DNA of 64,000 nt, taken from a virus (lineage: Duplodnaviria > Caudoviricetes). The notes beneath the pieces are model-generated. The model was not told where the DNA came from. It searched no databases and saw nothing but the letters and a program-made list of their open reading frames with translations. The stretch spans positions 1-64,000 of IMG/VR virus record IMGVR_UViG_3300033066_001396; one strand, written 5' to 3'. Below, one piece after another: positions 1 through 21,626 of this stretch. The first letter of the stretch is position 1. The number at the start of each line of letters is the position of its first letter. Both the position numbers and the translations under genes were made by a program.

Positions 1-890
1 CTTCCTGTAACGCTAATTGAACTAGTTACTGATGGCGTGATACTCGAAGTTACAGATATGCTTGAAGTGACCGAAGGAGTTGTACTGGATGTAACGCTAA
101 TTGAACTGGTCACCGTAGGCGTTACGGTGGCGGTTACCGAAATGGAGCTGGTAACAGATGGAGTTATACTTGAAGTTACTGAAATACTAGAGGTGACACT
201 TGGCGTTACTGAAATCGAACTGGTTACTGACGGCGTAACGCTTGCAGTTACGGAAATTGAACTGGTTACACTTGGAGTAATGCTTGACGTAACCGAAATA
301 CTACTAGTTATAGAAGGCGTAATGCTAATAGAACTAGTTACCGATGCGGTTACCGAGGCCGTGATTGAAATGCTCGAGGTAACGGATGGCGTGATTGAAC
401 TCGTGACTGAAATGCTAGATGTAACCGAAGGGGTTATGCTGCCGGTAATGCTTATTGAACTTGTGACCGAAGGGGTTACAGAAGCGGTCACCGAAGCAGT
501 AACGCTAATTGAATTTGTCGTAGTGGGTGTTGCGGTGACCGAAGCAGTAACGCTTGGCGTGGCCGAATTACTTGTCGAAATACTATTAGTTGTCGACGGG
601 GTAATAGAAGGGCTGGGAGTGGTACTAGCTGTTACACTTGCTGTGATGCTGCCGGTTATAGAAATAGAACTAGTTACGCTGGGGGTAATTGATCCTGTTA
701 CCGAAGGGGTTGGGGTGACGCTAGACGAAGCCGATTGTGTGGGCGTATAACTTATTGACTTGGTAACGGAAGGCGTGACGCTGGCGCTCCTGGTCATGGT
801 AGGAGTTATAGAAACGCTTCTGGTAACGCTTCCTGTTATGCTTGTTGATGGGGTTGTTGACCCGGTTACCGAAGCAGTTGGCGTTGGGGA
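1..890 (-). repeat. Degenerate coding tandem repeat, ~10-14 aa unit TPSVTSSISVT(S/A)S(I/V)
   Basis: Repeats are conserved at peptide level but synonymously diverged at DNA level. Confidence 0.85.
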
Positions 891-1263
891 GCACCTGACA
901 AATGGATCGTATGAAAGACTAAGGCTCTTAGACGGTGTTAGACTGAGACGCGGCGTATTGATTGCCTTGTCAAGTCTGGACTTCAACGCGGTTAAATCCC
1001 GGGCGATATTGAAATAGACCTGGTCCCTGGGATCGTGATCATCATATTCAAGAAGATTGGCAGTTACCTGCAATAATTCTTTAAGATCTTTTTCTGCCCG
1101 CCTTAATTTTATAAGATAGTCTTCCGATAGGACCTCATCTACTGTATATAGCTGTCGGTTGGTGTATGCGGTTAACCAATGATCGATCAATACGGATAGG
1201 GGACGATTTGTTAGATCTCCACTGTCCGTTAGATAAATAGCATCGTCTCGCAATACATGTCAT
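1..1263 (-). CDS. Mucin-like Ser/Thr/Pro-rich protein (partial, runs off left edge); missing from ORF track
   Basis: ATG at 1263-1261 overlaps the TAA of the upstream gene (TAATG). Frame is open to position 1: MTCIARRCYLSNGQW...DPFVRCSPTPTASVTGS then ~290 aa of (TPSVTSSISVTSSI)n repeats. Confidence 0.9.
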
Positions 1264-3563
1264 TATCCTTCTTTTCGTTCGTCTGCCGCATATGCCTCTT
1301 TCCTGTCATGTGTGATAGGGGAAGCCAATAACACACCCGCTTTGATTTCCCCCCTTATCTGCAGCCCAAATACATAGGCCATCTGGGTTCTTTCATGCGG
1401 ATGTTCCGGTATCCAGGTCAAAAATACCTTTTTATTGCCTGCTTTACTAAACAAAAGTGGCCAGTTGCAGTAGTATACATCACCAATGGCATATGCGGTC
1501 CCATCAAAATTACCTAGATAATCAAACTTGGTAGCCGGATGGTTAAGATCAAACCCATGGACAGGGAGCTTGTTATAGTATGGCCATTGATCATCGCGGA
1601 CATCTTGCTCCACATTATACCACGATACCTGCACCTGGTTATCCATAAACACCTCTGTAAATGTTAGCTTAAGAAAATCAAGCTCTTCTTTAGCCATGAT
1701 CCCATGAATAACATCCCATAACTTAGGAACGTAGCGTCTAAACCCATTACGGCAAAACTCTCCCTTCATATCCTCTCCATTCAAGGTCATATCATCTTCG
1801 AAGAAGACATAGTAATCAGCATCTAACTTATCAAAGTGCTCAGCCACATACTGCCTTGCTCCATTGATTCCAAGGTTCTCCATCAATGGAATATGCTTAA
1901 ATCCGTGTTTCTTACACACCTCTGCTATTCCAGCCCTGGCTTCTGGGTCTGTGCTGTTGTCAACCACATACTTCAGTGGTACCGTGAGCCAGTCAGGACA
2001 TGTTTTCTGCATATGAGATATGGTCGTGTCAAGCTGATTTGGCTTTTGGAAGGCAAGAAAATATATGGCTGTCCTGTCTCTTAGCTCGTGATATTCTTTA
2101 TTTAATACGTTCTCTCCGGTGATCACTGCGTTGTCGTTTATCACGGCTTCAAGGAACGGAGATATTATTGTTCCTGGCAATCTGTATCGTCTGAAATAAT
2201 TGGGTCTGAGATAAGACATGATAGCAAAGATCGTCTCCTCCGTACCCATGACTTTATCGGAAAGGCTCATATCAAGCAATCCATAATATTGACTATGCGC
2301 ATATCCTATTGCTCTTTTGGTTCCTCCAAAAAGACCTCCACGACACACATGGTCAACAACGGTCCCGGCATACTGGTGAACCTTTTCGCGCTTCATCCCA
2401 TGTATCTCGGCGGTGGTATTGCTGTAGTCAAAGCTCAGGAAAAGAAATGGATCTATGTACTTGGTCACCTTTCGATAAAATTCAGGTTCACAAAGCAACT
2501 GTTCTGGAACCGTATTGGTGAGTCCTCCATCTACCCATAAGAAGTATTTAGAGTCAAAGGGGTTCCACAGGGTTACATCGTGCATCATAAACATCTTACT
2601 TTGCACAATAGGATTATACCATTCAAGACGCGCCTGCGGGCTTCCTGTAAGCCATCCTCCTTCACCTGTTATGTTAAGCCATTCTTTAGATGTTCTGATT
2701 TCCTGGGTTCGGTCCCAGAAAGGATTATACAGGTTTTTAATGTCACTGAGCTCATAGATTCTTACCTGAGTATTTTCCTTTCTCCTTATCTCCCATACCA
2801 CATGCTCGTATTTTGCTTCTATGAAGACAAACATAGAGCACGGGGCTTTTAATAACTGCCTGAATTTAACCAGGTAATGACTTTCAAAGTCACGCTCGTC
2901 ACGACCTATATTCCATAATCCGGTGACTACTGTCAGCCTGGGATTTGAATTGGTAGCGGGTATATCCATAGATGCAGTTTGAGCGTTTTTGATAACAATA
3001 TGATTTCCACGATCACTAACCTCCATACCCTTAGTTAGTTCTGATAGTTCATCTCGATATGCGTCCATATATCCATCTTCACCACCATATCCATTGATGT
3101 CTTCGATAACGTAAATACCATTAGGTGATAATAAGTTTTTAAGATTCCGAAGCGTTGCCATCTGATATTTAGGGTTGTGATTGCCATCGTCTATGATGAC
3201 ATCATATTGCTTATCGAGTAATCCTAAAATTCCAAGGCCGCTGGAGTCTCCCATTACTGTCCTTATGCGTTCTTCGGTGAACATACAGTCAGAAGCAATA
3301 TCTACGCCCGTGATCTGAGCACCAGGAAAATAATCACGCCATGATCGAAGTGATCCACCAGGAAGGTAATGTGGGAAAAGGTTTAAGTTTCCGGCAAAGC
3401 TAGAAACAACAGATCTATCCATTGTTCCTATGCCTATCTCCAAGACAGCCTTGCACGTATTTCTTATTGGCTCAAAAAGTTCTTTATATGTTGCGGTATA
3501 TCCGCTACGATTTTTATCTGTTCCATAGAAATCGAAAATGCTTTCCAAATCGGTTGACTTCAT
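1263..3563 (-). CDS. Tri-domain glycan-modifying enzyme: class I SAM methyltransferase + HtrL/YibB-like glycosyltransferase + GT-A/GT2-like domain
   Basis: N-term YGTDK, VLEIGIG, GVDI, DVIIDDGNH, GIYVIEDI. Middle LTVVTGLWNIGR, FLWVDGG, GGLFGG, GTEETIF. C-term VVDNS, ENLGINGARQ, VFFEDD. Confidence 0.75.
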   Translation of the reverse strand: MKSTDLESIFDFYGTDKNRSGYTATYKELFEPIRNTCKAVLEIGIGTMDRSVVSSFAGNLNLFPHYLPGGSLRSWRDYFPGAQITGVDIASDCMFTEERIRTVMGDSSGLGILGLLDKQYDVIIDDGNHNPKYQMATLRNLKNLLSPNGIYVIEDINGYGGEDGYMDAYRDELSELTKGMEVSDRGNHIVIKNAQTASMDIPATNSNPRLTVVTGLWNIGRDERDFESHYLVKFRQLLKAPCSMFVFIEAKYEHVVWEIRRKENTQVRIYELSDIKNLYNPFWDRTQEIRTSKEWLNITGEGGWLTGSPQARLEWYNPIVQSKMFMMHDVTLWNPFDSKYFLWVDGGLTNTVPEQLLCEPEFYRKVTKYIDPFLFLSFDYSNTTAEIHGMKREKVHQYAGTVVDHVCRGGLFGGTKRAIGYAHSQYYGLLDMSLSDKVMGTEETIFAIMSYLRPNYFRRYRLPGTIISPFLEAVINDNAVITGENVLNKEYHELRDRTAIYFLAFQKPNQLDTTISHMQKTCPDWLTVPLKYVVDNSTDPEARAGIAEVCKKHGFKHIPLMENLGINGARQYVAEHFDKLDADYYVFFEDDMTLNGEDMKGEFCRNGFRRYVPKLWDVIHGIMAKEELDFLKLTFTEVFMDNQVQVSWYNVEQDVRDDQWPYYNKLPVHGFDLNHPATKFDYLGNFDGTAYAIGDVYYCNWPLLFSKAGNKKVFLTWIPEHPHERTQMAYVFGLQIRGEIKAGVLLASPITHDRKEAYAADERKEG

Positions 3564-3570
3564 TTTTATT

Positions 3571-5193
3571 TTATTTTTTTATGTATACGTTTTCAATAAT
3601 TAATCCATCCATTTCAGTGCTCTCGAGAATTGTCATGGCATCACGAACACTTGAAAGGATAGGCTTGCCATCGACATTAAACGACGTATTTAAAAGAACC
3701 CCAAATCCTTTTATATTATCAAACTGAGTCAATAGATCGTATAAGAATCTATTATTCTCCCGGGTCACTGTCTGTACCCTGGCAGTGCCGTCAATATGTG
3801 TTATGCTTGCTAGCTTCTCCCTCCATTCTTCACGAACAACTGGGCAGAAGCTCATCCACCTACTCTCTCCTTCAAAGTGGAAATACTTGCTGACATCCTC
3901 AAGTCTGACTACCGGAGCAAAAGGCCTATACCATTCCCTGTGCTTTACCTTAGCATTAAGAACATCTTTCATGTTTGGATATGAAGGATCACATAATATA
4001 CTTCTATTTCCCAGTGCGCGGGCACCATGTTCTGATCGTCTTCTGGCCACCCCAATAATCTTTCCGTCAGCCAAATCCTGGGCAACTAGTTTACGGCTTG
4101 CATTCTGTACAGTATAGTTAATAGGTGAGTTTTGTAGATATCCAAAAAGCATTGAGGCATCCATTAACTCTATTCCTGAGTACGTGGCATCATAAGGCTC
4201 TGCAGGCTTAAGGTGGTTAAGCATCATACCCAGTGCAATACCACAATCGTTTGGATTGGGACCAATAAAAACATCTCTTTGCTCTCTTATTTTAGTGTTC
4301 AATAGAATATTTAGCGCACAACCTCCTACAAATACCAGTGGCATTTCTGGATACTGGTCTATATATGGCTGGGTAACCTCAAAAAAACAGCTTTCAAAGG
4401 CTGCCTGGCTAGTAGCCGCAACATTATAAGCAATTTCATCATAAAGACGATTGTTAATGTCAAAAGATACACCTATGTGCCGACCAATGATGTCATTGAC
4501 CATTGTGTACTGATTAACCTGAGAATCCGGCGCAAACACGCCTCCTGGATTCTTTTTGTAAAAATCTATAAAAAATGGAAGCCATTCTTTCACCACAGAA
4601 CCATATGAGGCCAAGCCCATGATCTTGCCTGGATAAACAAGGTTCCCTATGGTTAGAGATTCATACTTTATATCACCAAGGAACTCTCCAAAAAACATGT
4701 ATGGGTATCCAAGGTCATATTCCTGCACCTGGTCATATGGGTTCATTACGCGTTGCAGTAAAACAGGAGACTGCCCCCGCTTGCAGGTATATATATTAAA
4801 CTTGCCATCATTGGCGCCACCATCTACTGAAAATATAAGCGCCTCAGAATATGGTGACTGATAAAAACCACCAGCCGCATGAGATTGATGGTGTAATCCG
4901 TAAACATATTTATTGGCTGGGATGAACTGATCAAGATGATATCTATCAGTAGTGATAACATCCGTATTCATATAAAAGCAGGTGTCAAACTTCTGCACAT
5001 TATATTTTCTCATAATGTGCCCTGCCATATACTTTGCAAGGTACACAATAAGATTATATCGTGGACACATATATTGAGCCATGCCCACATTCTTAAAGTT
5101 CAAAAAACGCTCCATCTCTAAGACCTCAAGGATCTTGCCATTCTCCTCTACAACAAATGTTGCATTATGAGAACCATAAAAAGCTATATTCAT
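3571..5193 (-). CDS. O-carbamoyltransferase, NodU/CmcH/TobZ family
   Basis: HHQSHAA, VDGG, GKIMGLASYG, GGCALN, NDCGIALG, GARALGNRSIL, KHREWYRPFAP, HIDGTARVQTV, LLNTSFNV motifs. Confidence 0.93.
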   Translation of the reverse strand: MNIAFYGSHNATFVVEENGKILEVLEMERFLNFKNVGMAQYMCPRYNLIVYLAKYMAGHIMRKYNVQKFDTCFYMNTDVITTDRYHLDQFIPANKYVYGLHHQSHAAGGFYQSPYSEALIFSVDGGANDGKFNIYTCKRGQSPVLLQRVMNPYDQVQEYDLGYPYMFFGEFLGDIKYESLTIGNLVYPGKIMGLASYGSVVKEWLPFFIDFYKKNPGGVFAPDSQVNQYTMVNDIIGRHIGVSFDINNRLYDEIAYNVAATSQAAFESCFFEVTQPYIDQYPEMPLVFVGGCALNILLNTKIREQRDVFIGPNPNDCGIALGMMLNHLKPAEPYDATYSGIELMDASMLFGYLQNSPINYTVQNASRKLVAQDLADGKIIGVARRRSEHGARALGNRSILCDPSYPNMKDVLNAKVKHREWYRPFAPVVRLEDVSKYFHFEGESRWMSFCPVVREEWREKLASITHIDGTARVQTVTRENNRFLYDLLTQFDNIKGFGVLLNTSFNVDGKPILSSVRDAMTILESTEMDGLIIENVYIKK

Positions 5194-6041
5194 CTAAAAA
5201 AGTTACTAAATGATACTTGGTTGGGATCGTAGGCATCCTTCCAGTCTTCATGATAAAATGTGTCAAACATCCATATGCTGAACCACTGAGGATACTTATT
5301 TACAATGTAAGTACTTATCTCCTCGTCATTACACAAATAATCGGTGAGAAGAAGTCGATGGATTAAGGCGTAAGCTTCGGTTGTATATTTCATTAAGTAA
5401 TCAAAAGAGCCACCGAAAAATCCTCCAACAGGATATGCCTCAGCATGAAAATCACCAAGTTCTTTCTTTAGTCCCAATATGTCAGCATCAGTAGATGGAC
5501 GACACAATACCACAATCTTGCCTTGTACTCTATCCTCTATCTTTTTTAGAGTGCCTGGGGTGAAGGCTAGATCATAATGGTATGAATTTTGCACTCCTTC
5601 TAGGTCATATGATCGCATAGAGCCCGGGAAGAGTCCACTATGGGACAGACCGCAATCAATCCAAAAAACATTCTGTCCCATATCGGCCTCTTTATGCAAG
5701 AAAACGAACTTTGACCAGTATATAATTGATGGCCTGTGGTACCTGTGAATCTTGTCAGGATCGTCGTATTCTTCTGGATTTGACTTCCTTATTGACAATA
5801 CCCTATTAAACCAGGGGCTCTCCTCAAGAACATAAACTTTTATAGTAAGATTACTGAGATTGTTCTTTTCCTTGAAAGCAGTAAGTTGATCATATCCACG
5901 GTTATCAGTATAGCATACTACTGGACAGCCAAAACCACATATTGACCGTAAAGAGTAAAGATACCACAGTTCTCTACTCATCTGTCCCCAGTACGGGGCA
6001 CCAAGATGATTGGCGTAATATGCTGTAACTATTTTTGCCAT
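5190..6041 (-). CDS. HtrL/YibB-like putative glycosyltransferase
   Basis: KIVTAYY, WSKFVFL, FWIDCGLSH, VGGFFGG, DEEI; paralogous to the middle domain of 1263..3563. Confidence 0.65.
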   Translation of the reverse strand: MAKIVTAYYANHLGAPYWGQMSRELWYLYSLRSICGFGCPVVCYTDNRGYDQLTAFKEKNNLSNLTIKVYVLEESPWFNRVLSIRKSNPEEYDDPDKIHRYHRPSIIYWSKFVFLHKEADMGQNVFWIDCGLSHSGLFPGSMRSYDLEGVQNSYHYDLAFTPGTLKKIEDRVQGKIVVLCRPSTDADILGLKKELGDFHAEAYPVGGFFGGSFDYLMKYTTEAYALIHRLLLTDYLCNDEEISTYIVNKYPQWFSIWMFDTFYHEDWKDAYDPNQVSFSNFFR

Positions 6042-6050
6042 AAAACCATT

Positions 6051-6560
6051 TTATTGATTTCTCCACTTACTGGGCTCAATAGGATCTGGCAGTGCCCATA
6101 ATCCATATTTTCCGGCCTGAGCTTTTTTCATGAGTTCAACACCATGTTTATAGCCTTTTACCGGGTGATATCCTTTGTATGCCCATCCCCAGCCGTTTTG
6201 AAGTATAATGTCATCTAGCCGTTCTGTGTCTATAAGCACAAAAGCCATTACCCTGCCAAACTTATCCTTACCATAATAGGTCAGTGTGACATTCTTGCCT
6301 TCAATGAGGTTTTTTACCATCAATTTAGCATCATCACCAAACGGCTGGGCTGGTCTTTTCTTAGGTACAAAGTAAATCTCCGGGCAGTCTACGTTGACAA
6401 GTCTTATCCGCAAGTCGTCAACTATCTTTCCTTTGTAACTGGCGGAATCTACAACGTAGGTGTCTCCATCTATGACACGACCTATATGTGCTTTAGATGT
6501 TTTTTGTGCCTCGATCTGAAAGCAGAGAAGCATTGCGATGAATACAAATATTTTTTTCAT
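6051..6560 (-). CDS. Thermonuclease (staphylococcal nuclease-like) with signal peptide
   Basis: VIDGDT, RIRLVNVDCPE, QPFG, DKFGRVMAFV, GLWA..P.EPSKWR; hydrophobic N-terminus. Confidence 0.9.
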   Translation of the reverse strand: MKKIFVFIAMLLCFQIEAQKTSKAHIGRVIDGDTYVVDSASYKGKIVDDLRIRLVNVDCPEIYFVPKKRPAQPFGDDAKLMVKNLIEGKNVTLTYYGKDKFGRVMAFVLIDTERLDDIILQNGWGWAYKGYHPVKGYKHGVELMKKAQAGKYGLWALPDPIEPSKWRNQ

Positions 6561-6570
6561 AATAAACTTT

Positions 6571-6810
6571 TTATTTTAAATTGGTTGATAGTGTTCCGGT
6601 ATAACACTTGCTGTCAAAATACAATTCCTTTGGCGTTGTGCGAGTATCATTTTGCATTTTCATATAAAGTGGAATATGTCTCGTGAGAATTACTTTATTA
6701 TTCTTGTCAGTAATTGATACAACCTCATTCCCTACAATAATATTTAGGGCTTTCCTTTGAATCATTCGTTGCTCTTTCCTGTTAAATAGGAATAAATAGT
6801 CTTTTTCCAT
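6571..6810 (-). CDS. Hypothetical protein
   Basis: Co-oriented ORF, tightly packed in the operon. Confidence 0.6.
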   Translation of the reverse strand: MEKDYLFLFNRKEQRMIQRKALNIIVGNEVVSITDKNNKVILTRHIPLYMKMQNDTRTTPKELYFDSKCYTGTLSTNLK

Positions 6811-6811
6811 T

Positions 6812-7213
6812 TTATCTCCAAGTCCCTCTTAAATTTAGATATCCATTGACTTTATAAAACCAATATCCTGGCCCTACCCAGGTGCCATTAGGAAGGTCAG
6901 TAAAATAAAGGTTTTTGCCATTAAGTACAAAAGTAGTAGGAATCCCTACACTTGTATCTATTTTGGCTGTTTTTGGTAGGCATTGTGAAGTTATTACATC
7001 TCTCCTTGGAGGGGTAGGTGGCATGGTCCATGGAATATCTGTTGGCTTGAACTCATACATCTCAGAAGGATAGAGTGGATTGTGATCCACACAATGCGTT
7101 ACCCTAACACTCGGGATAGGCGTTGGAGTAGTCCCTGGAACAGGCTTGTGTTCCACAATTAATTTAATAAATGGGAGCATCAAAAAGTTTTTTATAAACT
7201 CTGATCTATTCAT
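6812..7213 (-). CDS. Hypothetical protein with degenerate Tat-like N-terminus and Pro/Thr-rich linker
   Basis: MNRSEFIKN..., PVPGTTPTPIP; ATGA overlap with the upstream gene. Confidence 0.65.
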   Translation of the reverse strand: MNRSEFIKNFLMLPFIKLIVEHKPVPGTTPTPIPSVRVTHCVDHNPLYPSEMYEFKPTDIPWTMPPTPPRRDVITSQCLPKTAKIDTSVGIPTTFVLNGKNLYFTDLPNGTWVGPGYWFYKVNGYLNLRGTWR

Positions 7214-10200: not shown

Positions 10201-10419
10201 GTCCCAATCATCTTCTTTGGCATGTTGCCAGCATATGGAAAAAACAAGGTTTTGTGGAAAGGCCGCCTTAGCAATACAATCCCTTAGCGTCTTTTTTAGT
10301 TCCGAGTCTCTATAAGCTGCAATCTGAATGAATATCGTGTTGTCAGGGTTATCAGAAATGATGTCCATGACATCCAATAACTCAACACCCTCTTGTGTTT
10401 TGTCAAGACTTTGTTCCAT
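7210..10419 (-). CDS. Tandem GT60-like (polypeptide GlcNAc-transferase type) glycosyltransferase x2 fused to a C-terminal CX5R phosphatase-like domain
   Basis: Two copies of: IFIQIAAYRD/ILVHLPAYRE, GVCWAR/GLPYAR, LQLDSHHRF..WD/LQLDAHHRF..WD, SAHFAF/CGHFDF, HDP..YF.GEE, R.(F/W)THGYD..HP. C-term NVLVHCLVGECRS. Confidence 0.85.
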   Translation of the reverse strand: MEQSLDKTQEGVELLDVMDIISDNPDNTIFIQIAAYRDSELKKTLRDCIAKAAFPQNLVFSICWQHAKEDDWDDLDEFKDDPRFKIIDIDYKNSGGVCWARNMLQQQYNGEKYTLQLDSHHRFVKSWDLYLIDTYLSLQAKGFKKPLLTGYVPGYDPQTEVYINKDEVWTLRFNRFAPDDGMLHVEPQNVPDTGKITMPIRARLYSAHFAFTTGLFVKEVPHDPQMYFHGEEPSIAVRAFTHGYDLFHPHRCFIYHFYERKGFKRHWDDNGSQYDKLNSRAHDRFRRLLGIRCDREDLGMFGLGTERSLDEYEKFSGIRFKDCSVQKYTINNYPPPNPYYAIKEQYDQSFLPFFKHCIDIGYHEVPEKDYEFWVVAFRDEHDQDVYRQDAGPAEIERYFKDPDKYCKIWREFFYDRVPVKALVWPFSTSKGWADPIWKDLRGKAVVKAASSETHVEDRPHVEVAMPPPSKTDMVALYKKNLETPYTQTPGIATIDDVNEDMALDTFSETILVHLPAYREPELIPTILDALLHATHPARIHFGICRQYNPTDGFDNLDEFRSDPRFKIIDMPYEEAKGLPYARGLINDTLLTDEDYVLQLDAHHRFVKDWDCIMIGMLNGLEADGVEKPILTGYTPQYSPFNDPGDRVTHPWMSGFRCFYPFGTIFIGPQSLNGWETATKPIPARFLCGHFDFARSQWARDVRHDPSIYFAGEEINLTVRSWTHGYDFYHPHRLVLWHGTMREERSQICKWDDDNRKGIHWDEKQNENRKMIMKLFGIEDHPHITLDPTYGLGTARTVAQYEKFAGLDFKRRAVQQYTVDNQPPPNPLVLGDYTASLKKSFYYVVNVERKDFPRNDYKHILVAFDDENGIGINLEYQPPNFQNGVIHYAKYFTHDMDKRVARVVYWGQTTSDEWAERVEIILPVPEDYSVPTEPFIQNVSRQDIVDGKHFEVGDNTILIQILDAGEDFPEPKFSPLERYYFAFSDEWTSKGVLATEAESIQPAQAEAIAKVLRHAAEIKANVLVHCLVGECRSSAISAAAKTIGFSVLPNKKNNRPNQRVLSMVLEKLKS

Positions 10420-10423
10420 CGAA

Positions 10424-10431
10424 CAAATATA
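10424..10431 (-). promoter_or_regulatory. Bacteroidota sigma -7 element TATATTTG, 4 nt before the ATG of the glycosyltransferase cluster
   Basis: CAAATATA on + strand; matches the TAnnTTTG consensus. Confidence 0.65.
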
Positions 10432-10440
10432 ACAAAACTT

Positions 10441-10725
10441 TTACGGGTGTACGCAAGCTATCTGATTAAATGTTCCGGGGGTCACGCAGCCACAGCCTTG
10501 CCCCGGCACACATACGCAGTCACCAGGACAATAATCGTTGACGCCGGAACAAGCCAGACAATGATCTCCAGCCTGAGTCGTCTCAACACATGATGTGGGA
10601 ACCACCGATCCATTATCACAAGAGCCGCAGAGCGGATCATAACAAGATCCGCTACAGCAACCATTATTTATTGAGGCCCCGAAACATGGGGTGCCTGCCG
10701 CTATACTTCCATTGCCTATTGCCAT
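10441..10725 (-). CDS. Small cysteine-rich protein
   Basis: 94 aa with about 15 Cys (CC, CxxC, CxC); directly follows the giant Cys-rich gene. Confidence 0.8.
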   Translation of the reverse strand: MAIGNGSIAAGTPCFGASINNGCCSGSCYDPLCGSCDNGSVVPTSCVETTQAGDHCLACSGVNDYCPGDCVCVPGQGCGCVTPGTFNQIACVHP

Positions 10726-13700: not shown

Positions 13701-16107
13701 GTACCGGAGGAGTAAAGTTGTGCGTATTGACACATTCATAACCGTTATTGCAGACCATTCTTAAGGTCACAGTCTTTATACCTGCCTTGTCCGTAAAGTG
13801 TCCGCTATATCCTGCATTGAATAGGTTAAAACCGCCAGGGACCACACTCGTGCCATTGATTAATAGTTCAAATTTCTTGTTTTTGTTAGCATGGCAGGTC
13901 TTACCAATAACCACATCTACTGATTGACCACATGAATTAGGGTCTATGTCAGCGGTGAAGTCAGGAGGATTGCAGAATACAATATATTTAGATGTGAGTG
14001 GCTTACAACTGCAGTCAGTCTTTAACCCATAGTGGAAGCAGCTTTCTACATACTTCACACCATTAACCACCTCGTCATTTAGTCGATCGACAAATTTCCC
14101 TGCTGAGTCAAGAGGGACATACGCTGTCCTGAACCAGGTACTTGCATCAAAGTTGCCGTTAGCACTCTTATACCAGATGAATTTTGGCAGTCTGGTGTCG
14201 TTATTGGATGCCGTTCCGGACATTCTTACACTTCCAAAGCCACTGTTAGTGATCACCTCAAAACGGGAAAGTTCTTTGGAGCCAGGATATTTGCAAGTGT
14301 TCTTAAATACCCAGTCATGAGAACTGAGAATAAAAGTAACGGAACTGACAATCCTGTTTTCTCCGACGATACCAGAAGAGATAGGGAAGCCATTCATTTG
14401 ATAGATAGTGACGTTACCCATTGGTATAACGCCGGCATTGGCTATTGACTGAGATAGCGTCTGAACCATGGCGTCCGGACGAATACCATTGATCGGCTGG
14501 AAGTTGGTGATTACATCTAATTTCAATGTTCCACCATCCGCCGTTTCGTTTATGCTAATGTCTGGGTTGATGGTGTTGCTAAGCAACCAGTTATCGTCTC
14601 CCAAATTATTACCTAAGAACAACTTGGCATCAAAACCAATGGTATGAGTGCCCGATGTCTTTGGTTGCCCAGGAGTGCTTGCCTTTAAAGTAGATATCAA
14701 GTTGGCTGATATTACAGGGCAGCCGCATTCGCGATCTTTAGTCAGTTGACCCTCTAGCTTACATCCCGCATCAATCTTTACGATTTCCAGGGTGTCTTTA
14801 CATAGGTAGTCTGGATCCCCTTCGCAGGTACCATTACCACTACATCGGCATCCTTCGTGAGCCGCGCAGTCGCCGTTATCACAGCTAAAGAACTCGCATG
14901 GCACACATTTATTTTTATCGCACGTGCAGCCATCGCCGCATTCTCCTTTAGTATTGCAGTTACCAGCGCATTTGTTACCAGTTCCTACACAGTTACCGTT
15001 CTGGCATTCACAGCCAAGAGCTCTGGCGCAGTCACCATTGGTGCAGCTCAGCTTAGAGCAGTCCACACATTTAGTGTCAAGACAGCCGCAGCCATTTCCA
15101 CCGCCACCACAACCGCCTCCATTGGTACAGTCACCGGTGCATTTATCGGATACGCACTTGTCGTTTCCGGCACAATGGCATCCATTAGCACATCCTGAAC
15201 TACAATTTCCGCAGGGGACGCATACGCATACCCCTTCTATACTTTTACATACCTTACCTTCATTAGTACATGAAGAAGGCTTATTACAGTCACATTTTTC
15301 GAGACAGTCACCGTTAACACATATCTGACCATCTGGACACTGTCTTGGAACGCACTTTCCATTTATACATTCACCGCACGGACCGCAGTCGTTTCCTGTA
15401 CATTCAGGTTTTGGATCGCATTTCCCGGTCAGTGGATTAAGAACAAATCCTGGGCAACAAACACATTGGTTGCCGGTGCTACAACAGAAGTTGTCACCTT
15501 TGGCAGAACAGTCTCCGCCAGCAACACATTCTTTACAAATACCATCGCGAGGATCACATACTCCATTGCCTCCACAAGATCCCTTATATACACAGGTGCC
15601 ATCAACACAGGTATAGCACTTTCCATATTTAGCCTCACAATGGTTTTGGGTCTGACACTCAACACATCGGCCATTGCCCATGTCATAAGGCTTCCCTGGT
15701 CCACACTGGCATTTGCCTGCAATACATTGCTGGGTGCCTGGGCATGGGTGCAGTTCATCACAATCAACACATATATTATTGGTCTCGTCACATACACCGG
15801 TACATCTATCAACGCAATATCCTTGTGGTCCGCAGTCCTGGCATGGTCCGCAGCCAAGTCCATTGGCGCAGAAACACACATCCCGCTCAAGTAGTTGGTT
15901 TATTCCACAACTAGTACAGGCAATAAATAGCTTGATACATTTTTTGTCGCTTCCTGTAAGGGGAGTGAGAAAAGATACATCAACACAATTGCTGTTGGGA
16001 GGGCAAGAGATAAGGACGCCTGGTTGTTCTATCCAGGTTATAACAGGATTGGCGCAACAGGAAGGAATTCCGGTTACGCAATATGTAATTCTTGTAAGCG
16101 CTGCCAT
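10741..16107 (-). CDS. Giant Cys-rich putative virion appendage/fibre protein (1788 aa): Cys-repeat N-region, beta-rich middle, mucin-like S/T/P tract, Cys-rich tip
   Basis: aa ~75-435 are CxxxxxC..CxCxxxxC repeats; ~150 aa TPSxTPS tract near the C-terminus; lies in the structural operon. Confidence 0.75.
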   Translation of the reverse strand: MAALTRITYCVTGIPSCCANPVITWIEQPGVLISCPPNSNCVDVSFLTPLTGSDKKCIKLFIACTSCGINQLLERDVCFCANGLGCGPCQDCGPQGYCVDRCTGVCDETNNICVDCDELHPCPGTQQCIAGKCQCGPGKPYDMGNGRCVECQTQNHCEAKYGKCYTCVDGTCVYKGSCGGNGVCDPRDGICKECVAGGDCSAKGDNFCCSTGNQCVCCPGFVLNPLTGKCDPKPECTGNDCGPCGECINGKCVPRQCPDGQICVNGDCLEKCDCNKPSSCTNEGKVCKSIEGVCVCVPCGNCSSGCANGCHCAGNDKCVSDKCTGDCTNGGGCGGGGNGCGCLDTKCVDCSKLSCTNGDCARALGCECQNGNCVGTGNKCAGNCNTKGECGDGCTCDKNKCVPCEFFSCDNGDCAAHEGCRCSGNGTCEGDPDYLCKDTLEIVKIDAGCKLEGQLTKDRECGCPVISANLISTLKASTPGQPKTSGTHTIGFDAKLFLGNNLGDDNWLLSNTINPDISINETADGGTLKLDVITNFQPINGIRPDAMVQTLSQSIANAGVIPMGNVTIYQMNGFPISSGIVGENRIVSSVTFILSSHDWVFKNTCKYPGSKELSRFEVITNSGFGSVRMSGTASNNDTRLPKFIWYKSANGNFDASTWFRTAYVPLDSAGKFVDRLNDEVVNGVKYVESCFHYGLKTDCSCKPLTSKYIVFCNPPDFTADIDPNSCGQSVDVVIGKTCHANKNKKFELLINGTSVVPGGFNLFNAGYSGHFTDKAGIKTVTLRMVCNNGYECVNTHNFTPPVPPSVIPDAECANDLVVGGVPVPPGTKVRYTFWKAKYTPTFTSVTMRVHNGTNISPEIDDAEKVTFIADAWIEGAPVYDYTVNFPCGTATGSEKKNCCNAFEPILNGHCTSNRTMGNLNDAVTYRLNGYPISKSVLSTANFNKPFTFTPVGQGPITTDPKKLIVVEWSKVGCPGGKVGIFPCADLSFQLEKVGDTPVIKIPPGSIYSADKPGDTYQIKVNGSGFGPYVPGATVPGIVGVNTVTLRRGNEEGTRTLEIRTSAACDIEDADVVVVQNGSKYEVSVPASTCPCDAERPLPIFIKTVTKMGDFFRLTFQSDFANTNALKGLFEVGYGANPFIKSGKLLVDAPEFRKIVDIANVNEVGGYVDIPCSAQAQDSFTSSFSLERVYSGTAPGGTYADNHSLLRLCMGWPSTIGTHITGITLVNNTNSQTIVGIVQDARCYTFGQVDLTGSANLTFIVSLSDNTTFNLSAIDVLHPTGDDIPFTYGDNEHLCDNCLAWVAISLVGVTFVDGCVYNFSASNWSSKVCDGDTERMDSAGYVDIVKEELPRPKSDIKVNFFENGTLIKRQFISGGSDKAILDGTQPANPDGIEYGKLYVAEALCNCAGEKALTCLKPRIISALTTCTTGYYSDGSGVLKLRYTISTAYPSRALSIYRNDGTLIETVNTDINGGIVNREVTLSEAMAGLNDDIFIFAQFDVACVSDVVLVPRSEVNLTWTRDCTNSPATYDIIFADAPTIEIISGTGTVVGSTIINIPNNTTIEFRGSILGCTSKVYTELYDCTIAPTPSITTSVTKSVTHSLVSVTQTRTITPSISTSPDQGGIVVYSNTPSPSPSKTPSTTPSTSLSGTPGASATASPSLSGSAPVTPSATPSPSTTPSNGTSATPSTSVPPLSATPTASKTPSITPTASITATATPTATRTASASPSLSPCNTNCASYGPSYTGYICGVSIYCCGGQQLLPGYQCCSGTLINPAAGDICCAQQSILS

Positions 16108-17511: not shown

Positions 17512-17521
17512 TATTCATATT

Positions 17522-18688
17522 TTATACACTTGTACTGGGGGTGACAGAAATACTCTTAGTGACGCTTGGTGTAACGCTGATGCTACGAGTAACACTGATA
17601 CTTGAGGTAATGCTGGGGGTAATTGATATGGTAGACGTGACGGACGGGGTTATTGTTGGCGTCACGCTTATAGTAGGACTGAGCGGTATCGCTGGCCTCC
17701 GTACTCTGATCAGAATATTAAATACCACATCGTCTACCGGGTCGGCAATTACGCCTCCAACCTCATGAGTAAAGGCTAGCTGGTTTTCACTAATCCTTCC
17801 TCCATCGATATTAAATGGGGTATTATAATCTGGTGTAATAAATATATTGGTGTGGTTCCATGTAAATGCTCCTGCTAGAGTAGCCCGGTAATCTCCTCCG
17901 CTGACACGAGTCCATACAATGGTTCCAGGAAACTCATTGTTGTTTACATATACTGATGGCGGACCGCCATCAGCACGTAATGTCACAAACCCCTCATATT
18001 CTGTAGGGTCTGTAAACAACTTATTTATCTTGACCGTGGCTGTAGAAAAAGAACTGTACGGATTACCATCAGCACAATTATCACATGTCACTGTATAATC
18101 AAAATAACTATCCTTTTTAGGATTGATCCTGACAATATTTGCCCAACCATCCTTAGTAATACTGATTACATTGACATTGATAGAACTGTTCGCTACTAAA
18201 TTATATCCTTTAGTGCAGCAAGGACAAATAACTGTGTCGTTGCCTCCAACATAAACTCTTTCATATAGGTCATCATCAGAAATCTGAATACTTGGAGTAA
18301 TAAAGCTTTCAGGATTGCACGGCACATCTCCAACCTTAGATACAAATACCCTACGGAGATTGTTTTCCAGGATAGCGTCTGACTCGTTAAGTGTCAACGC
18401 CTGGGTAATTACCATATTAAGAAGAGAGATGTCATCGACACTATATTTTATCTTAATACTTTTCAGCCCTTTCCTGTAGATATTACCTATGGTCCATATG
18501 CCCAAACTTGGATTAAATACTCCATTGCCTGGTGCCACAGTATGTGACACATAAGAAAGACCGGCCACCGGCAAAGTAAATGTCCCTATAACACCGGTGG
18601 CGTCAATAAGGGCACTTATATTCCTGGCGGTCCACTCAACCTCGAACTGATCACCATTGTTTTTAACGAAGTATTGATTGTTTTGCAT
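17522..18688 (-). CDS. DUF11/Ig-like domain structural protein with C-terminal mucin-like tag
   Basis: Likely start MQNNQ at 18688; GDQFEVEWTARN..LP.GLSYVS..G.FN...GIWTIGNI is DUF11-like; ends TPSVTKSISVTPSTSV. Confidence 0.7.
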   Translation of the reverse strand: MQNNQYFVKNNGDQFEVEWTARNISALIDATGVIGTFTLPVAGLSYVSHTVAPGNGVFNPSLGIWTIGNIYRKGLKSIKIKYSVDDISLLNMVITQALTLNESDAILENNLRRVFVSKVGDVPCNPESFITPSIQISDDDLYERVYVGGNDTVICPCCTKGYNLVANSSINVNVISITKDGWANIVRINPKKDSYFDYTVTCDNCADGNPYSSFSTATVKINKLFTDPTEYEGFVTLRADGGPPSVYVNNNEFPGTIVWTRVSGGDYRATLAGAFTWNHTNIFITPDYNTPFNIDGGRISENQLAFTHEVGGVIADPVDDVVFNILIRVRRPAIPLSPTISVTPTITPSVTSTISITPSITSSISVTRSISVTPSVTKSISVTPSTSV

Positions 18689-18690
18689 TT

Positions 18691-19149
18691 TTATGTAGTT
18701 GAAATGTCGGCACCAGCATCGATACATCCTTCAGTACACTCGTCGCATATCTGTCCGTCAGGGCAGGAGATAGTTGCGCACACATCTTTAACACACACCA
18801 CTATTTCGAAGAAATCTCCCCGGCCAGTGGTGGGGCATATTACCTGTCCTCGTATACGATAGCACGCGGTCTTAAGCGCCGTTGTCTTAAAAGCATAAGT
18901 AATAATCCCGTCGTTTAAGGCAACCCAGTCAAAGCCAGAATCCCATGAGTCAAGTTTAAAAATGACACCGGTTCCGCATACTGTACTGTTGCGAGTATTT
19001 ATGTCCAGGCTCTTGAAATCAATTGTTCCTACCTGACCACAGATCCCTACGCTGTCTTTGCTATATACTACATGATACCCACCAACAATGCATCCTGTCT
19101 TGCAGATAGGGTTTGTGGGGGTTGATATTGTTGTGCATTTACATCCCAT
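18691..19149 (-). CDS. Cys-rich hypothetical structural protein
   Basis: C-terminal CATISCPDGQICDECTEGC resembles the repeat CPDGQICVNGDC in the 1788-aa protein. Confidence 0.7.
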   Translation of the reverse strand: MGCKCTTISTPTNPICKTGCIVGGYHVVYSKDSVGICGQVGTIDFKSLDINTRNSTVCGTGVIFKLDSWDSGFDWVALNDGIITYAFKTTALKTACYRIRGQVICPTTGRGDFFEIVVCVKDVCATISCPDGQICDECTEGCIDAGADISTT

Positions 19150-19150
19150 T

Positions 19151-19663: not shown

Positions 19664-19920
19664 TAAGCGAAGCCAGCGGCTTTATCTGCCAAATAAGCTG
19701 CTTCTGTCGCCCAGGTCCACGTTCCGTTCTTTGAGTATCCCACATAACGAACGCCGGTAACGGAATCGTCTAAGGTGAGTGTGTTGTTGCAACAATTGAC
19801 ACCGCAGCATCGTCGTTCAGTAACACGATCAAGAACCTCACCCATATCGGTGAGGCCTTGATTTTGTTTTGTATCGTGAATCAACCCGATCTTCGCCAGT
19901 ACACCGCTAAGAACTCCCAT
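19663..19920 (-). CDS. Hypothetical protein
   Basis: TAATG coupling on both sides; RCCGVNCC motif. Confidence 0.7.
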   Translation of the reverse strand: MGVLSGVLAKIGLIHDTKQNQGLTDMGEVLDRVTERRCCGVNCCNNTLTLDDSVTGVRYVGYSKNGTWTWATEAAYLADKAAGFA

Positions 19921-21626
19921 TAGTGACTAGTTGAAGGGGTTACGGAAATAGAGATGCTAGGGGTTACGGAAATACTTTTCGTTACGGAATGTGTAATCGA
20001 TACGCTCTTAGTAACAGAAGGTGTTACGGAAGGCGTGGCATATGGTGTAGTGCTTACGCTTGGTGTTGGAGGTCCTGGGTTAGGATCTTCGGTACAAGCG
20101 ATGTCAACAATGCCATAGCAGTTATTTACATTCTTAAGCGCATTAAGATCATCTACAAGAGCTTCCTTCTGTGCGAAAGATTGGGGTATTGCAATAATAT
20201 TCCTTACCACGGTGCTACCAATCAGCCCAATAGGGTCTGCCCAATGGCCGTACGCGTTAGCCTCCCAGCTGATTACACAGTAAGGAGTAGGACAGTCAAG
20301 AAGAACTCCTTTGCTCCTGGCAATATCGAGTAGTTTGTCATATTGGCCACCTGTGCGTAACTCTGAATCATTATATCCAGGTCGTGGCTCAGAGCCATAG
20401 GCATCTTCCCACAACTGCACTCCAAATCCTTCTGGAGACACAGCCGGAACCACTATCTCAAAGACGCCATCAACAAATCCTTCGATAGCTGACACATCTA
20501 CATTGGTTGGATAATAGGTTACTGGGTAGTCACTCTTGCCAAGGCAATCACATCCTTCTTCTGCAAGGTCGCCAACGAAGCCAATGGCACAGCCATAGGT
20601 CTTGGTCTGTGATGCTGCAGAACCGCAGTTGACACAGTTTTTAGGAATAGTCCTCGAGAAGGAAACCGCTTCACTTCTACATGGATCAATATAAGTGCCA
20701 TCATGCTTGATGAGTTGAACGCCCATGCATGAGTTTATAGTAAGCTCAATGTCGATGCAGGATGAGGACAAGTCTCCATCACTGATCCAGGCTGCGCCTT
20801 GATGAGCATTGAACGCACACCATATCTCATTCAGCAGTTGATTGATTTGGCTTGCATTGGTTGTTGTAGCAGAACTGAGGGTGCCACTGAACAACGTATC
20901 TACACCCTGGATACGGACACCTTTGATGCCTGTATATGAATCACATACTCCGCAATCTCCGGCAACACCGGTAAGGCAGAAGATGTAATTAGTAGGGTTG
21001 TATACAAAGGCCTTTACAGGCTTTGGCTCTTCACGATAGTCAAAGAACCCGGCATTGTTTCCCATGGTTCCGTTAAACATATCAACCATGCCACAGGCTA
21101 TCTCACGACAATATGTGTCATCATCGCATGTATCACATGCCGCATTAACACTGGTGTCATAGGAAATAGGATACCTAGCCGCCTTATCCATTGCATACTC
21201 CTGGCGAGTACGGTTGGATTGGATGTCTACGTTCAAACCGTAAATGGTATTCTTTCTTACACAATCAAAAAGCCATCGGCTCACTTCTCTGCGGCCTATG
21301 TTGGGGGCAACAGCGTGCATACTCAAAACGTTATCCGCGCTGATCTTGTCTCCAATGATCTTATCGATCCGATCAATCACCCCAAACTTATTGGCCTTGT
21401 ATTGTCCCAAAATTAAATTGGGGACATTAGGAGTGGCTGATGGGTCTACGCTGATACCGTCAGTGTTCTTATAGAACACAAACATATCAGGTAATGCTTC
21501 AGCTGGATAGGTAACTCCCTTACCCTTGATACAGTTTCCGGTAGGACAACTATGGGCTTTGATACCTGCAGGCAGAATACCATTGTCCTTGTTGCTTACC
21601 AAATACCTCTGTTTTGTTACACTCAT
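19920..21626 (-). CDS. Cys-rich putative capsid-associated structural protein with C-terminal mucin-like tag
   Basis: Third gene after MCP, where crAss-like phages encode auxiliary structural proteins; ends TPSVTKSVSITHSVTKSISVTPSISISVTPSTSH. Confidence 0.65.
   Translation of the reverse strand: MSVTKQRYLVSNKDNGILPAGIKAHSCPTGNCIKGKGVTYPAEALPDMFVFYKNTDGISVDPSATPNVPNLILGQYKANKFGVIDRIDKIIGDKISADNVLSMHAVAPNIGRREVSRWLFDCVRKNTIYGLNVDIQSNRTRQEYAMDKAARYPISYDTSVNAACDTCDDDTYCREIACGMVDMFNGTMGNNAGFFDYREEPKPVKAFVYNPTNYIFCLTGVAGDCGVCDSYTGIKGVRIQGVDTLFSGTLSSATTTNASQINQLLNEIWCAFNAHQGAAWISDGDLSSSCIDIELTINSCMGVQLIKHDGTYIDPCRSEAVSFSRTIPKNCVNCGSAASQTKTYGCAIGFVGDLAEEGCDCLGKSDYPVTYYPTNVDVSAIEGFVDGVFEIVVPAVSPEGFGVQLWEDAYGSEPRPGYNDSELRTGGQYDKLLDIARSKGVLLDCPTPYCVISWEANAYGHWADPIGLIGSTVVRNIIAIPQSFAQKEALVDDLNALKNVNNCYGIVDIACTEDPNPGPPTPSVSTTPYATPSVTPSVTKSVSITHSVTKSISVTPSISISVTPSTSH

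Follow-up and report, generated by a model that had tools for sequence, protein, structure and literature searches.

Why does a phage place a cluster of glycosyltransferase genes among late genes whose products carry long Ser/Thr/Pro tracts, and what would the enzymes act on? The locus occupies positions 1–21626 of the window, the 64,000-nucleotide stretch of IMG/VR record IMGVR_UViG_3300033066_001396 that was analysed. ORF calls place every gene from 1 to about 39000 on the minus strand. Genes for a crAss-type major capsid protein (PF23898, E = 6e-17; 1.7e-18 in the genome search) and a ring protein (PF25710, E = 1e-6), both over their cut-offs, mark the region as a late module. The contig, 80% complete, fulfils the Crassvirales-like criterion of a crAss-type capsid plus ring proteins, and among cultured phages those of Flavobacterium come closest, at 25% identity. 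In this crAss-like phage, four late tract genes flank an enzyme cluster with five glycosyltransferase domains plus modifying enzymes, all within the structural module and distant from replication genes. The tract-gene/structural block is conserved in a syntenic relative, L419. The features are:

3–1253, minus: 5′ half of a Ser/Thr-tract gene; tract at aa 106–416 (nt 6–938)
1263–3563, minus: three-domain enzyme of 766 aa (methyltransferase, HtrL/YibB-like GT-A, second GT-A)
aa 1–190 of 1263–3563, minus: SAM methyltransferase domain (weak; Methyltransf_24, E = 2e-4)
aa 210–458 of 1263–3563, minus: HtrL/YibB-like GT-A domain (HtrL_YibB, E = 2e-9)
aa 490–766 of 1263–3563, minus: second GT-A domain with an EDD motif (weak GT2 match, clear by fold)
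3571–5193, minus: NodU/CmcH-type O-carbamoyltransferase (PF16861, E = 5.6e-62; PF02543, E = 1.9e-18)
5190–6041, minus: second HtrL-like protein, putative glycosyltransferase (Pfam E = 0.004, below cut-off; NCBIfam E = 3e-4)
6051–6560, minus: Staphylococcal-nuclease homologue (PF00565, E = 1.9e-19) with a signal-peptide-like hydrophobic N-terminus
6812–7213, minus: 133-aa ORF with short Pro/Thr-rich stretches, no family match
7210–10419, minus: 1069-aa fusion of GT60 unit a, GT60 unit b and a Cys-phosphatase domain (PF11397, E = 5e-121)
9112–10338 (aa 27–436), minus: GT60 unit a (PF11397, DSH motif)
7645–8907 (aa ~505–925), minus: GT60 unit b (PF11397, DAH motif)
7210–7650 (aa ~924–1069), minus: Cys-phosphatase domain, HCLVGECRS motif (HCX5RS)
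10441–10725, minus: 94-aa Cys-rich ORF, from sequence, directly upstream of the GT60 gene
10741–16107, minus: 1788-aa structural-module protein; tract near the C-terminus, aa 1584–1735 (nt 10903–11358)
17522–18727, minus: 401-aa protein with a DUF11 repeat domain (PF01345, E = 5e-7); C-terminal tail, aa 342–401 (nt 17525–17704)
19920–21626, minus: 568-aa protein directly after the ring-protein gene; C-terminal tail, aa 508–568 (nt 19923–20105)
21635–22342, minus: crAss ring protein 3/4 (PF25710)
22317–23456, minus: unknown ORF, context gene
23365–24921, minus: crAss-type major capsid protein (PF23898)

A stretch counted as a tract when Ser, Thr or Pro made up 19 or more of 30 residues. By this measure 1–21626 is about 100-fold denser in tracts than 114 random viral loci, where tract residues number 2.7 per 10 kb. 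The four late-region tract proteins that the first-pass annotation had named were all confirmed, with coordinates right to a few tens of bases. ORF 3–1253 encodes 105 non-repeat residues followed by a tract that runs off the contig start, and its DNA contains tandem repeats of 42–114 nt. It continues in phase at contig 124565–123279 with further tract and a C-terminal domain of ~75 aa. The two terminal 84-nt segments of the contig are identical at 83 of 84 positions and share a codon phase, which makes this ORF half of a gene cut by the contig end; the contig broke inside a tract gene, an observation new here. The 1788-aa protein has its tract some 500 nt ahead of the GT60 gene; it had no match in family searches, and its ortholog in L419 is 62% identical. 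L419 also encodes an ortholog of the DUF11 protein that retains a longer Ser/Thr tail. All 12 homologues of the 568-aa protein (43–93% identity) retain a tail of 55–60 aa that is 57–70% Ser/Thr/Pro. A further tract protein, of 1453 aa, is encoded outside the window at contig 116746–121104.

The tracts contain 46–54% Ser+Thr and 7% Pro and are rich in Val/Ile, and this Ser/Val/Ile-rich type is new here. Poor in Pro and rich in Val/Ile, they are unlike classic mucin acceptors, an observation that weighs against the glycosylation proposed below. Family searches matched none of the tract proteins to a known virion protein family, and the tract proteins of other phages have no globular similarity to them. 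Their presence on the virion is inferred from position in the structural module only. A simple hydropathy scan, made without a dedicated predictor, picked up neither signal peptides nor membrane segments, whether in the enzymes or in the tract proteins; enzymes lacking both would therefore be able to meet phage proteins in the cytoplasm.

The 1069-aa protein matches PF11397 at E = 5.2e-121 and contains two full units (profile positions 1–350; E = 5e-58 and 1e-47; curated cut-off, 21 bits). It is also matched by phrog_24687 in two stretches (E = 3.5e-230). A DxH metal motif is present in both units, as LQLDSHHRF (unit a) and LQLDAHHRF (unit b); D118, H120 and H121 are invariant across 22 sequences, and both units retain all invariant family residues. 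A DxH motif in place of DxD marks the GT27 and GT60 families (PMC7185993). Sequence-level search against solved GT60/GT27 structures gave no match. With the aligner VIA, the predicted GT60 structure (pLDDT 83.7) was closest to GalNAc-T1 (8v9q; Z = 20.6, 284 residues aligned, 3.6 Å) and Toxoplasma gondii GalNAc-T3 (8uhv; Z = 18.9), with other GT-A enzymes at 16.6 or below. Foldseek likewise placed the model nearest a polypeptide GalNAc-transferase (E = 4.6e-9), nearly all of its top 30 matches being GT27, so that two independent aligners put polypeptide GalNAc-transferases first. The GT60 identity and GT27 kinship suggested in the first-pass annotation are thereby borne out by profile, motif and nearest folds.

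Units a and b are two distinct ancient paralogs, a pair that is also new here, each bearing an extra β-rich domain of ~95 aa. The PF11397 family comprises more than 6400 sequence clusters in metagenomes, and we know of no characterised bacterial or viral GT60 to anchor specificity. GlcNAc as the sugar is inferred, and its transfer from UDP-GlcNAc to a protein hydroxyl (Thr/Ser or Hyp) has the tract association described below as its only, indirect, support. The phosphatase domain at the C-terminus has its HCLVGECRS motif at aa 1024–1032 and fulfils the Cys-based (PTP/DSP-fold) criterion of an HCX5R(S/T) P-loop with a general-acid Asp upstream: the H, C, G, R and S, together with an Asp, are invariant in 32 relatives; its family includes 302 relatives with invariant H-C-x2-G-x2-R-S and Asp. 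The DSPc profile scored 18 bits against the domain, below the 33.5-bit cut-off, and 37.6 bits against a relative, P0224, which passes. Judged by its motif, the putative Cys-phosphatase fused to GT60 is new here; a second such fusion is P0121. Its role is inferred.

The cluster content reported earlier was confirmed: a GT60 tandem, two HtrL-like domains, a GT2-like domain, a methyltransferase and a carbamoyltransferase. Some details change: the GT2-like domain forms the last third of the 766-aa fusion, the phosphatase domain ending the GT60 protein had not been listed, a secreted nuclease gene interrupts the cluster, and ORF 3–1253 is only half a gene. In an AF2 model of the 766-aa protein (pLDDT 86.9), the C-terminal GT-A domain is predicted to resemble B4GALNT1, POMGNT1 and GnT-I (Z = 14–15) and the HtrL domain GT6/GT8-type enzymes (Z = 11–12). 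The best whole-chain Foldseek matches of the HtrL+GT-A fusion (E = 1e-9 to 1e-6) were the two-domain transferases collagen LH3/ColGalT1, mimivirus R699, K4CP, LARGE1 and heparosan synthase. These would share with it two GT-A domains in one chain but differ in domain orientation (whole-chain rmsd 16–27 Å), at ~10% identity. The fusion was found in 71 of 81 GT60 loci, the second HtrL-like protein in 28 related loci and the carbamoyltransferase in 7. NodU-type enzymes carbamoylate sugar hydroxyls. The enzyme here has both the Carbam_trans_N and Carbam_trans_C domains and matches the NodU model at E = 8e-42; its 143.7 bits fall far under the 1000-bit equivalog cut-off, and it is therefore a family member and not NodU itself. 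The nuclease homologue, missing from all 80 related loci, is probably an unrelated insert, and the 133-aa ORF has no relatives in related loci.

The pairing of GT60 with tracts extends well beyond this phage. Tracts lay within 10 kb in 70 of 80 viral GT60-relative loci compared with 7 of 114 random loci (217 versus 2.7 tract residues per 10 kb). In 63 of the 70 the tract ORF precedes GT60 on the same strand, and in 48 it is the immediate upstream neighbour, within 200 nt. In the reverse test, 8 of 44 records selected for DNA encoding (Thr-Pro)6 had PF11397 above its cut-off, against 0 of 50 controls; the remaining 36 of the 44 carry no GT60. Co-occurrence, which the first-pass annotation had offered as a check, was strongly positive in both directions with controls. 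The viral GT60 loci are not phylogenetically independent: grouping GT60 at 70% identity leaves 13 clusters, of which only 8 had a tract within 10 kb. Three incomplete records had no tract anywhere. The pairing also occurs on bacterial chromosomes, such as those of Jiulongibacter, Ralstonia and Paraburkholderia, and the enzyme module is tightly associated with tract genes across unrelated lineages. A crAss-type capsid, present in the window phage, occurs in 0 of 42 other GT60 records. Related loci also contain GT2 and GT25 enzymes, and other phages add GT2, GT25 or GT34-like enzymes. As far as sequence comparison can tell, the putative tract substrates differ among phages while the predicted enzymes stay the same.

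Four cultured phages carry the same module: Xanthomonas XacN1, Xoo-sp13, Stenotrophomonas RAS14 and CM1. Identity between XacN1 and the window is 38% for GT60, 41% and 34% for the HtrL+GT-A fusion, 44% for the carbamoyltransferase (ORF333) and 31% for the second HtrL-like protein (ORF332). In the jumbo phages XacN1 and RAS14, the genes for GT60, carbamoyltransferase, second HtrL-like protein and HtrL–GT-A fusion adjoin baseplate genes, and a giant protein carries a C-terminal tract; in XacN1 its gene comes after the baseplate wedge genes. Ralstonia phage RsoM2USA offers a contrast: it has no GT60 match, and its ortholog of XacN1 ORF325 ends just before the tract and distal domain. The XacN1-type phages resemble the window in having this module and an adjacent giant tract protein. 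They differ in that they are jumbo myoviruses, have only one GT60 unit and lack the phosphatase, and their one or two tracts are short and Pro-rich whereas those of the window are many, long and Ser-rich. XacN1 virions show at least two Schiff-stained glycoprotein bands, which were not identified; the authors proposed ORF334 as a candidate and drew no link from the enzyme to tracts or GT60 (PMC5852040). Because XacN1 has the same five-domain enzyme module, this staining fits a glycosylation reading. No glycan has been measured on any tract protein, these unidentified bands being all there is.

Taken together, we assign a probability of roughly 0.65 to a phage-encoded cytoplasmic mucin-type protein O-glycosylation system, through which the phage most likely sugar-coats its own proteins, no sugar having been measured. 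The GT60 units would put the first sugar, most likely α-HexNAc from a UDP-sugar, on tract Ser/Thr residues of late proteins made by the phage itself, both sugar and acceptor being inferred. Three HtrL-like/GT-A domains may then lengthen the chain, in an order of steps that is also inferred. The methyltransferase and NodU-type carbamoyltransferase would decorate sugar hydroxyls; that methylation and carbamoylation cap the glycan is an inference. The tract proteins would then become part of the virion or sit on it, forming extended segments covered in glycans. O-glycosylation of the phage's own tracts, the central idea of the first-pass annotation, is supported by comparison and not proven.

It is unlikely that the cluster instead makes or modifies a glycan not borne on protein, such as host lipopolysaccharide, capsule or a cell-wall polymer, to serve superinfection exclusion or release, with the tracts being plain flexible linkers that share a variable region. 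The name HtrL/YibB does come from an LPS-core cluster gene, the GT25 and GT2 of related loci belong to typical envelope-glycan families, and most tract-bearing records lack GT60. A jumbo-phage review also takes phage glycosyltransferase clusters to be surface-polysaccharide modifiers (PMC7824862). GT60/GT27, however, is the polypeptide-acceptor clade; tract genes are frequently the immediate upstream neighbours on the same strand, and the pairing holds up when passed between unrelated phage lineages and bacteria. None of the enzymes is membrane-anchored, and the phages, of lytic type, carry the module in late/structural regions. It is very improbable that the enzymes glycosylate or decorate phage DNA (hypermodified bases) against restriction. 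In favour of this reading, 41 related loci and XacN1 have a DNA polymerase gene at a distance of a few kb, and phage glycosyltransferases commonly modify DNA, according to PMC12619734 (citing Pyle et al. 2024). In the window, the cluster is part of the structural module and distant from replication genes. A DNA target would leave the tract association unexplained, and no thymidylate-synthase-like hydroxymethylase was found on the 80%-complete contig. We know of no GT60 or GT27 enzyme that acts on DNA.

The module may also glycosylate the tracts on carriers that are not virion proteins, acting as released or cell-bound factors during infection or lysis. The lack of matches to known virion families would allow this, and some tract proteins of other phages resemble multi-domain enzymes, one with a putative papain-like NSWG motif. 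It is nevertheless quite unlikely, as the genes are flanked by capsid/ring genes on one side and more large late genes on the other, in a block that L419 shares, the simple hydropathy scan gave no signal peptides, and in XacN1 the tract gene follows baseplate genes and the virions stain for glycoprotein. PF11397 was built around Gnt1, a hydroxyproline GlcNAc-transferase, which raises hydroxyproline as the acceptor in place of Ser/Thr, as in the Dictyostelium/Toxoplasma Skp1 pathway. With so little Pro in the tracts and no 2OG-Fe(II) prolyl-hydroxylase-type gene found on the contig, this is barely credible.

Ser/Thr O-glycosylation, the preferred reading, has partial counterparts. The acceptors of Trypanosoma cruzi OGNT1 are Ser/Thr-rich and mucin-like (PMC9472816). 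Protist GT60 enzymes (OGNT1 on mucin Thr, Dictyostelium/Toxoplasma Gnt1 on Skp1 hydroxyproline) share with the window PF11397, DxH, Ser/Thr-rich acceptors (predicted for the phage) and later extension by other transferases. The window enzyme differs in being phage-encoded, predicted soluble and cytoplasmic in a bacterial host rather than Golgi-located, and composed of two paralogous units with β-rich domains and a fused phosphatase. GT27 GalNAc-transferases, its nearest solved folds, likewise have DxH and a catalytic domain followed by an extra C-terminal one, and several of their isoforms target dense Ser/Thr tracts, but they are only 12–16% identical, and no ricin-type lectin domain was identified here. 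Mycobacteriophages Che8, Corndog and Myrna glycosylate their own structural proteins with phage enzymes at C-terminal extensions, according to PMC12619734 (citing Freeman et al. 2023, Cell Host Microbe 31:1216). Two window proteins also carry tracts as C-terminal tails; the window differs in Gram-negative hosts, far longer tracts (to 600 aa or more), richer decorating enzymes and, apparently, enzyme family, with glycosylation inferred only. The earlier view that the system departs from usual phage glycosyltransferase roles consequently needs tempering, mycobacteriophage virion O-glycosylation having been published in 2023.

Mucin-type initiation by GT60/GT27 is regarded as a eukaryotic trait, and to our knowledge protein glycosylation by phage-encoded enzymes has been demonstrated only for a few mycobacteriophages. 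If the proposal is true, this family equips many large environmental phages, along with a crAss-like phage and certain bacteria, with a cytoplasmic mucin-type pathway, which would provide a toolkit for mucin-like glycoproteins in the bacterial cytoplasm. A virion glycan brush could affect adsorption, protease resistance, sticking to mucus or biofilm, and immune recognition, the last bearing on phage therapy. The idea is testable now because the four cultured phages carry the module. A possible but doubtful extension is a mobile cytoplasmic 'mucin code' common to phages and some bacteria. GT60 paralogs would be matched to tract types (Thr-Pro repeats with a single GT60; Ser/Thr-Val/Ile repeats with GT60a, GT60b and carbamoyltransferase), the two-domain transferase would build a longer, possibly repeating, methylated and carbamoylated glycan, and the fused phosphatase would edit a phospho-intermediate or phospho-Ser/Thr. 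Mucin-type glycoprotein brushes would then be a widespread, unrecognised surface feature of large environmental phage particles. The closest fused GT60a–b gene is found in locus L340, which also contains a relative of the 94-aa Cys-rich ORF.

Every gene from position 1 to about 39,000 lies on the minus strand. The major capsid protein and ring protein genes identify a late structural module, and a set of putative glycosylation enzymes (1263–10419) sits among genes whose products carry dense Ser/Thr(/Pro) stretches, here termed tracts (at least 19 of 30 residues Ser, Thr or Pro). The main features are:

7210–10419, minus strand: 1069-aa protein with two PF11397/GT60 units (a and b) and a C-terminal HCX5RS domain
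within 1263–10419, minus strand: 766-aa single-chain fusion of methyltransferase, HtrL-like and GT-A domains
within 1263–10419, minus strand: NodU-type carbamoyltransferase and, at 5190–6041, a second HtrL-like protein (HtrL2)
21635–22342, minus strand: ring protein 3/4 (PF25710)
23365–24921, minus strand: crAss-type major capsid protein (PF23898)

The first-pass annotation had described a cluster of GT60, HtrL, glycosyltransferase, methyltransferase and carbamoyltransferase functions among the tract genes, and this observation was confirmed; its four tracts are all real, with positions correct to within a few tens of bases. A 401-aa (17522–18727) and a 568-aa protein (19920–21626) each end in one of them, a tail of about 60 aa. 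The third sits close to the C-terminal end of the 1788-aa product of 10741–16107, and the fourth makes up most of the product of a gene interrupted by the contig ends. Random viral loci contain 2.7 tract residues per 10 kb, whereas the tract region of the window has roughly 100 times more. The composition is unusual, with 46–54% Ser+Thr, about 20% Val+Ile and 7% Pro.

Both GT60 units retain the DxH motif and all invariant residues of a 22-sequence family alignment. Unit a was modeled with AF2 (pLDDT 83.7); the nearest Foldseek neighbors of the model are polypeptide GalNAc-transferases, and an independent all-against-representatives aligner gave Z scores of 20.6 for GalNAc-T1 and 18.9 for Toxoplasma gondii GalNAc-T3, against 16.6 or less for generic GT-A enzymes. 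This fold is in line with the published GT27/GT60 clade, of which polypeptide Ser/Thr O-glycosylation and the DxH motif are the hallmark (PMC7185993; PMC9472816). With PF11397 found twice and the nearest folds being polypeptide GalNAc-transferases, the domain and fold search thus bore out the proposed relationship to GT60/GT27. Sequence searches of the PDB with the GT60 protein and the 22-sequence profile returned no match, so the kinship with GT27 rests on the fold only. Units a and b share 35% identity and have their own orthologues, which are encoded by adjacent genes in seven related loci and fused in one. Judged from these separate orthologues, the pair is ancient and its members probably differ in function.

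The C-terminal 146 residues of the GT60 protein (7210–7650, minus strand) form a Cys-phosphatase domain with 302 relatives, for the most part stand-alone proteins of ∼140 aa; H-C-x2-G-x2-R-S and an Asp are invariant in the family. These relatives came from an exhaustive search; a word-index search gave no match. One further GT60–phosphatase fusion (the protein relative P0121) was identified, and the domain is absent from 80 related viral loci. A very Cys-rich 94-aa ORF (10441–10725, minus strand) sits immediately upstream of the GT60 gene; it has a relative in the locus L340, whose GT60a–b gene is the closest fused version.

More than 6400 clusters match GT60 at E < 1e-5, and 98 stretches with GT60 relatives were found in IMG/VR. 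A tract is present within 10 kb in 70 of the 80 fetched GT60 loci, compared with 7 of 114 control loci fetched by random 14-mer. In 63 of these 70, the tract ORF lies upstream of the GT60 gene and shares its strand; in 48, no more than 200 nt separate the two. In the reverse direction, PF11397 was detected in 8 of 44 records picked only by (TP)6-coding DNA and exceeded the cut-off in none of 50 controls. The anticipated co-occurrence of GT60 with tract genes therefore holds both ways. Many loci are near-duplicates; after clustering, a tract remains nearby in 28 of 35 clusters at 90% GT60 identity and in 8 of 13 at 70%. Scanning the whole record for five tract-less loci revealed tracts elsewhere in two, and the other three are fragments (19–43% complete). 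In 71 of 81 loci, GT60 occurs together with the HtrL+GT-A fusion; the genes between the two differ by locus (GT34-like, GT25, GT2 or a CmcI-type sugar O-methyltransferase), a pattern typical of a conserved initiator coupled to extension enzymes that diversify. The most Val/Ile-rich tracts (16–25% Val+Ile), like those of the window, belong to the three viral loci that combine GT60a, GT60b and the carbamoyltransferase (L080, L081 and L067). That the tract type tracks the enzyme version is only suggestive, since the three loci are probably related.

The association extends well beyond crAss-like phages. No crAss-type capsid was detected in the other GT60 records (0 of 42; the positive control worked), whose sizes and completeness values suggest jumbo phages. 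GT60 occurs in the cultured jumbo phages XacN1, Xoo-sp13, RAS14 and CM1. XacN1 has the order GT60, carbamoyltransferase, HtrL2 and HtrL+GT-A fusion, all recognizably orthologous to the window genes, and the annotated regions of RAS14 and Xoo-sp13 show the same order. The jumbo-phage module adjoins baseplate wedge genes and a gene for a giant protein (3100–3300 aa) that carries a Ser/Thr/Pro tract close to its C-terminal end. In the Ralstonia phage RsoM2USA, which lacks GT60, the giant-protein ortholog ends just before the tract and distal domain found in GT60 phages such as XacN1. XacN1 virions were reported to give at least two Schiff-stained bands, for which the phage's own transferases were proposed as the source (PMC5852040). 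Bacteria show the pairing too: on six large chromosomal contigs (L348, L354, L366, L384, L407 and L409), with examples from Jiulongibacter sediminis, a Saprospiraceae genome, Paraherbaspirillum, Trinickia, Paraburkholderia and Ralstonia sp. 25C, GT60 relatives are encoded no more than a few kb from proteins with long Thr-Pro repeats, suggesting that the system has a cellular, or prophage-borne, form. The bacterial tract counts are inflated by frames that arise spuriously in high-GC DNA, and only tracts inspected by eye were used.

The tract carriers of other phages have no globular similarity to those of the window; the enzyme set and the tract are conserved, but the carrier is not. Within the lineage, a tail of 55–60 aa with 57–70% Ser, Thr or Pro is retained by each of the 12 homologues of the 568-aa protein (43–93% identity), and the 401-aa ortholog in L419, a syntenic relative whose capsid protein is 65% identical, keeps its tail as well. 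L419 is the sole JGI/ENA relative with context and its contig stops short of the expected enzyme position, so joint gain or loss of tails and GT60 could not be assessed within the lineage. No relatives of the capsid or 568-aa protein were found in IMG/VR, and no near-identical DNA in cultured phages; the closest cultured capsids, of Flavobacterium phages, are 25% identical. Searches with the tract proteins against PHROGs, Pfam (also with E up to 5), NCBIfam and a protein atlas gave no usable identification, the atlas hint of a crAss001 auxiliary capsid protein (score 0.79) being a lead only. That the carriers are virion parts is inferred from gene position alone.

Window positions 1–84 match contig positions 124483–124566 at 83 of 84 nt, with the codon phase kept, within a Ser/Thr tandem repeat, indicating an assembly break inside the repeat. 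ORF 3–1253 and contig 123279–124565 are halves of a single gene, whose product opens with 105 residues ahead of a Ser/Thr tract that spans about 600 aa or more and is followed by a ∼75-aa C-terminal domain. A circular or circularly permuted genome, broken in the repeat during assembly, is probable, and the CheckV completeness of 80% for the 124,566-bp IMG/VR viral contig, whose first 64 kb make up the window, may be an underestimate. Just past the join and outside the window, contig 116746–121104 (minus strand) encodes a 1453-aa protein in which four or more distinct Ser/Thr/Pro tracts separate globular modules that contain Cys; it is a fifth candidate acceptor for the same system.

The transferases could instead glycosylate DNA, but the contig has no hydroxymethylase (PF00303) and the tracts would be left unexplained, making this unlikely. 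Hydroxyproline as the acceptor is also unlikely here, given the absence of a prolyl-hydroxylase-type oxygenase (PF13640) from the contig and the Pro-poor tracts of the window. Modification of an envelope glycan by the extension enzymes cannot be excluded, although it does not account for the operon-like adjacency of tract genes to a polypeptide-type initiator in unrelated hosts. The first-pass annotation had interpreted the cluster as O-glycosylating the phage's own tracts, and comparative genomics supports this as far as it reaches. We estimate a probability of about 0.65 that the phage encodes O-glycosylation of Ser/Thr tracts on its own late proteins. Display on the virion, the identity of the sugar, and capping by methyl and carbamoyl groups are further inferences.

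Among the presumed extension enzymes, the HtrL+GT-A fusion models as two GT-A domains (pLDDT 86.9), one GT6/GT8-like and the other resembling B4GALNT1, POMGNT1 and GnT-I; the whole chain resembles the two-domain transferases LH3, K4CP, LARGE1 and mimivirus R699. No membrane segments or signal peptides were seen in the glycosylation enzymes. A staphylococcal-nuclease homologue with a signal-peptide-like N-terminus (6051–6560, minus strand) lies mid-cluster and lacks a counterpart in related loci, and this secreted nuclease gene is an apparent insert.

Glycosylation of phage virions is an already published concept. A literature search found no papers linking GT60 to phages. Particular to the present case are the crAss-like carrier, the fused GT60a–GT60b–phosphatase, the link to cultured, experimentally tractable phages and, suggestively only, the Ser/Val/Ile-rich tract type common to three loci with the same module version.

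In another phage, a 967-aa tract-bearing protein (L026:5740–8640) has a C-terminal papain-like NSWG...WG motif, seen by eye only, and some acceptor proteins may be enzymes. In the structural module of the window, a 598-aa protein (31380–33176, minus strand) joins an M12B (reprolysin-like) metallopeptidase to an F5/8 type C (discoidin) domain and may be a virion-borne enzyme that degrades host surface or matrix.
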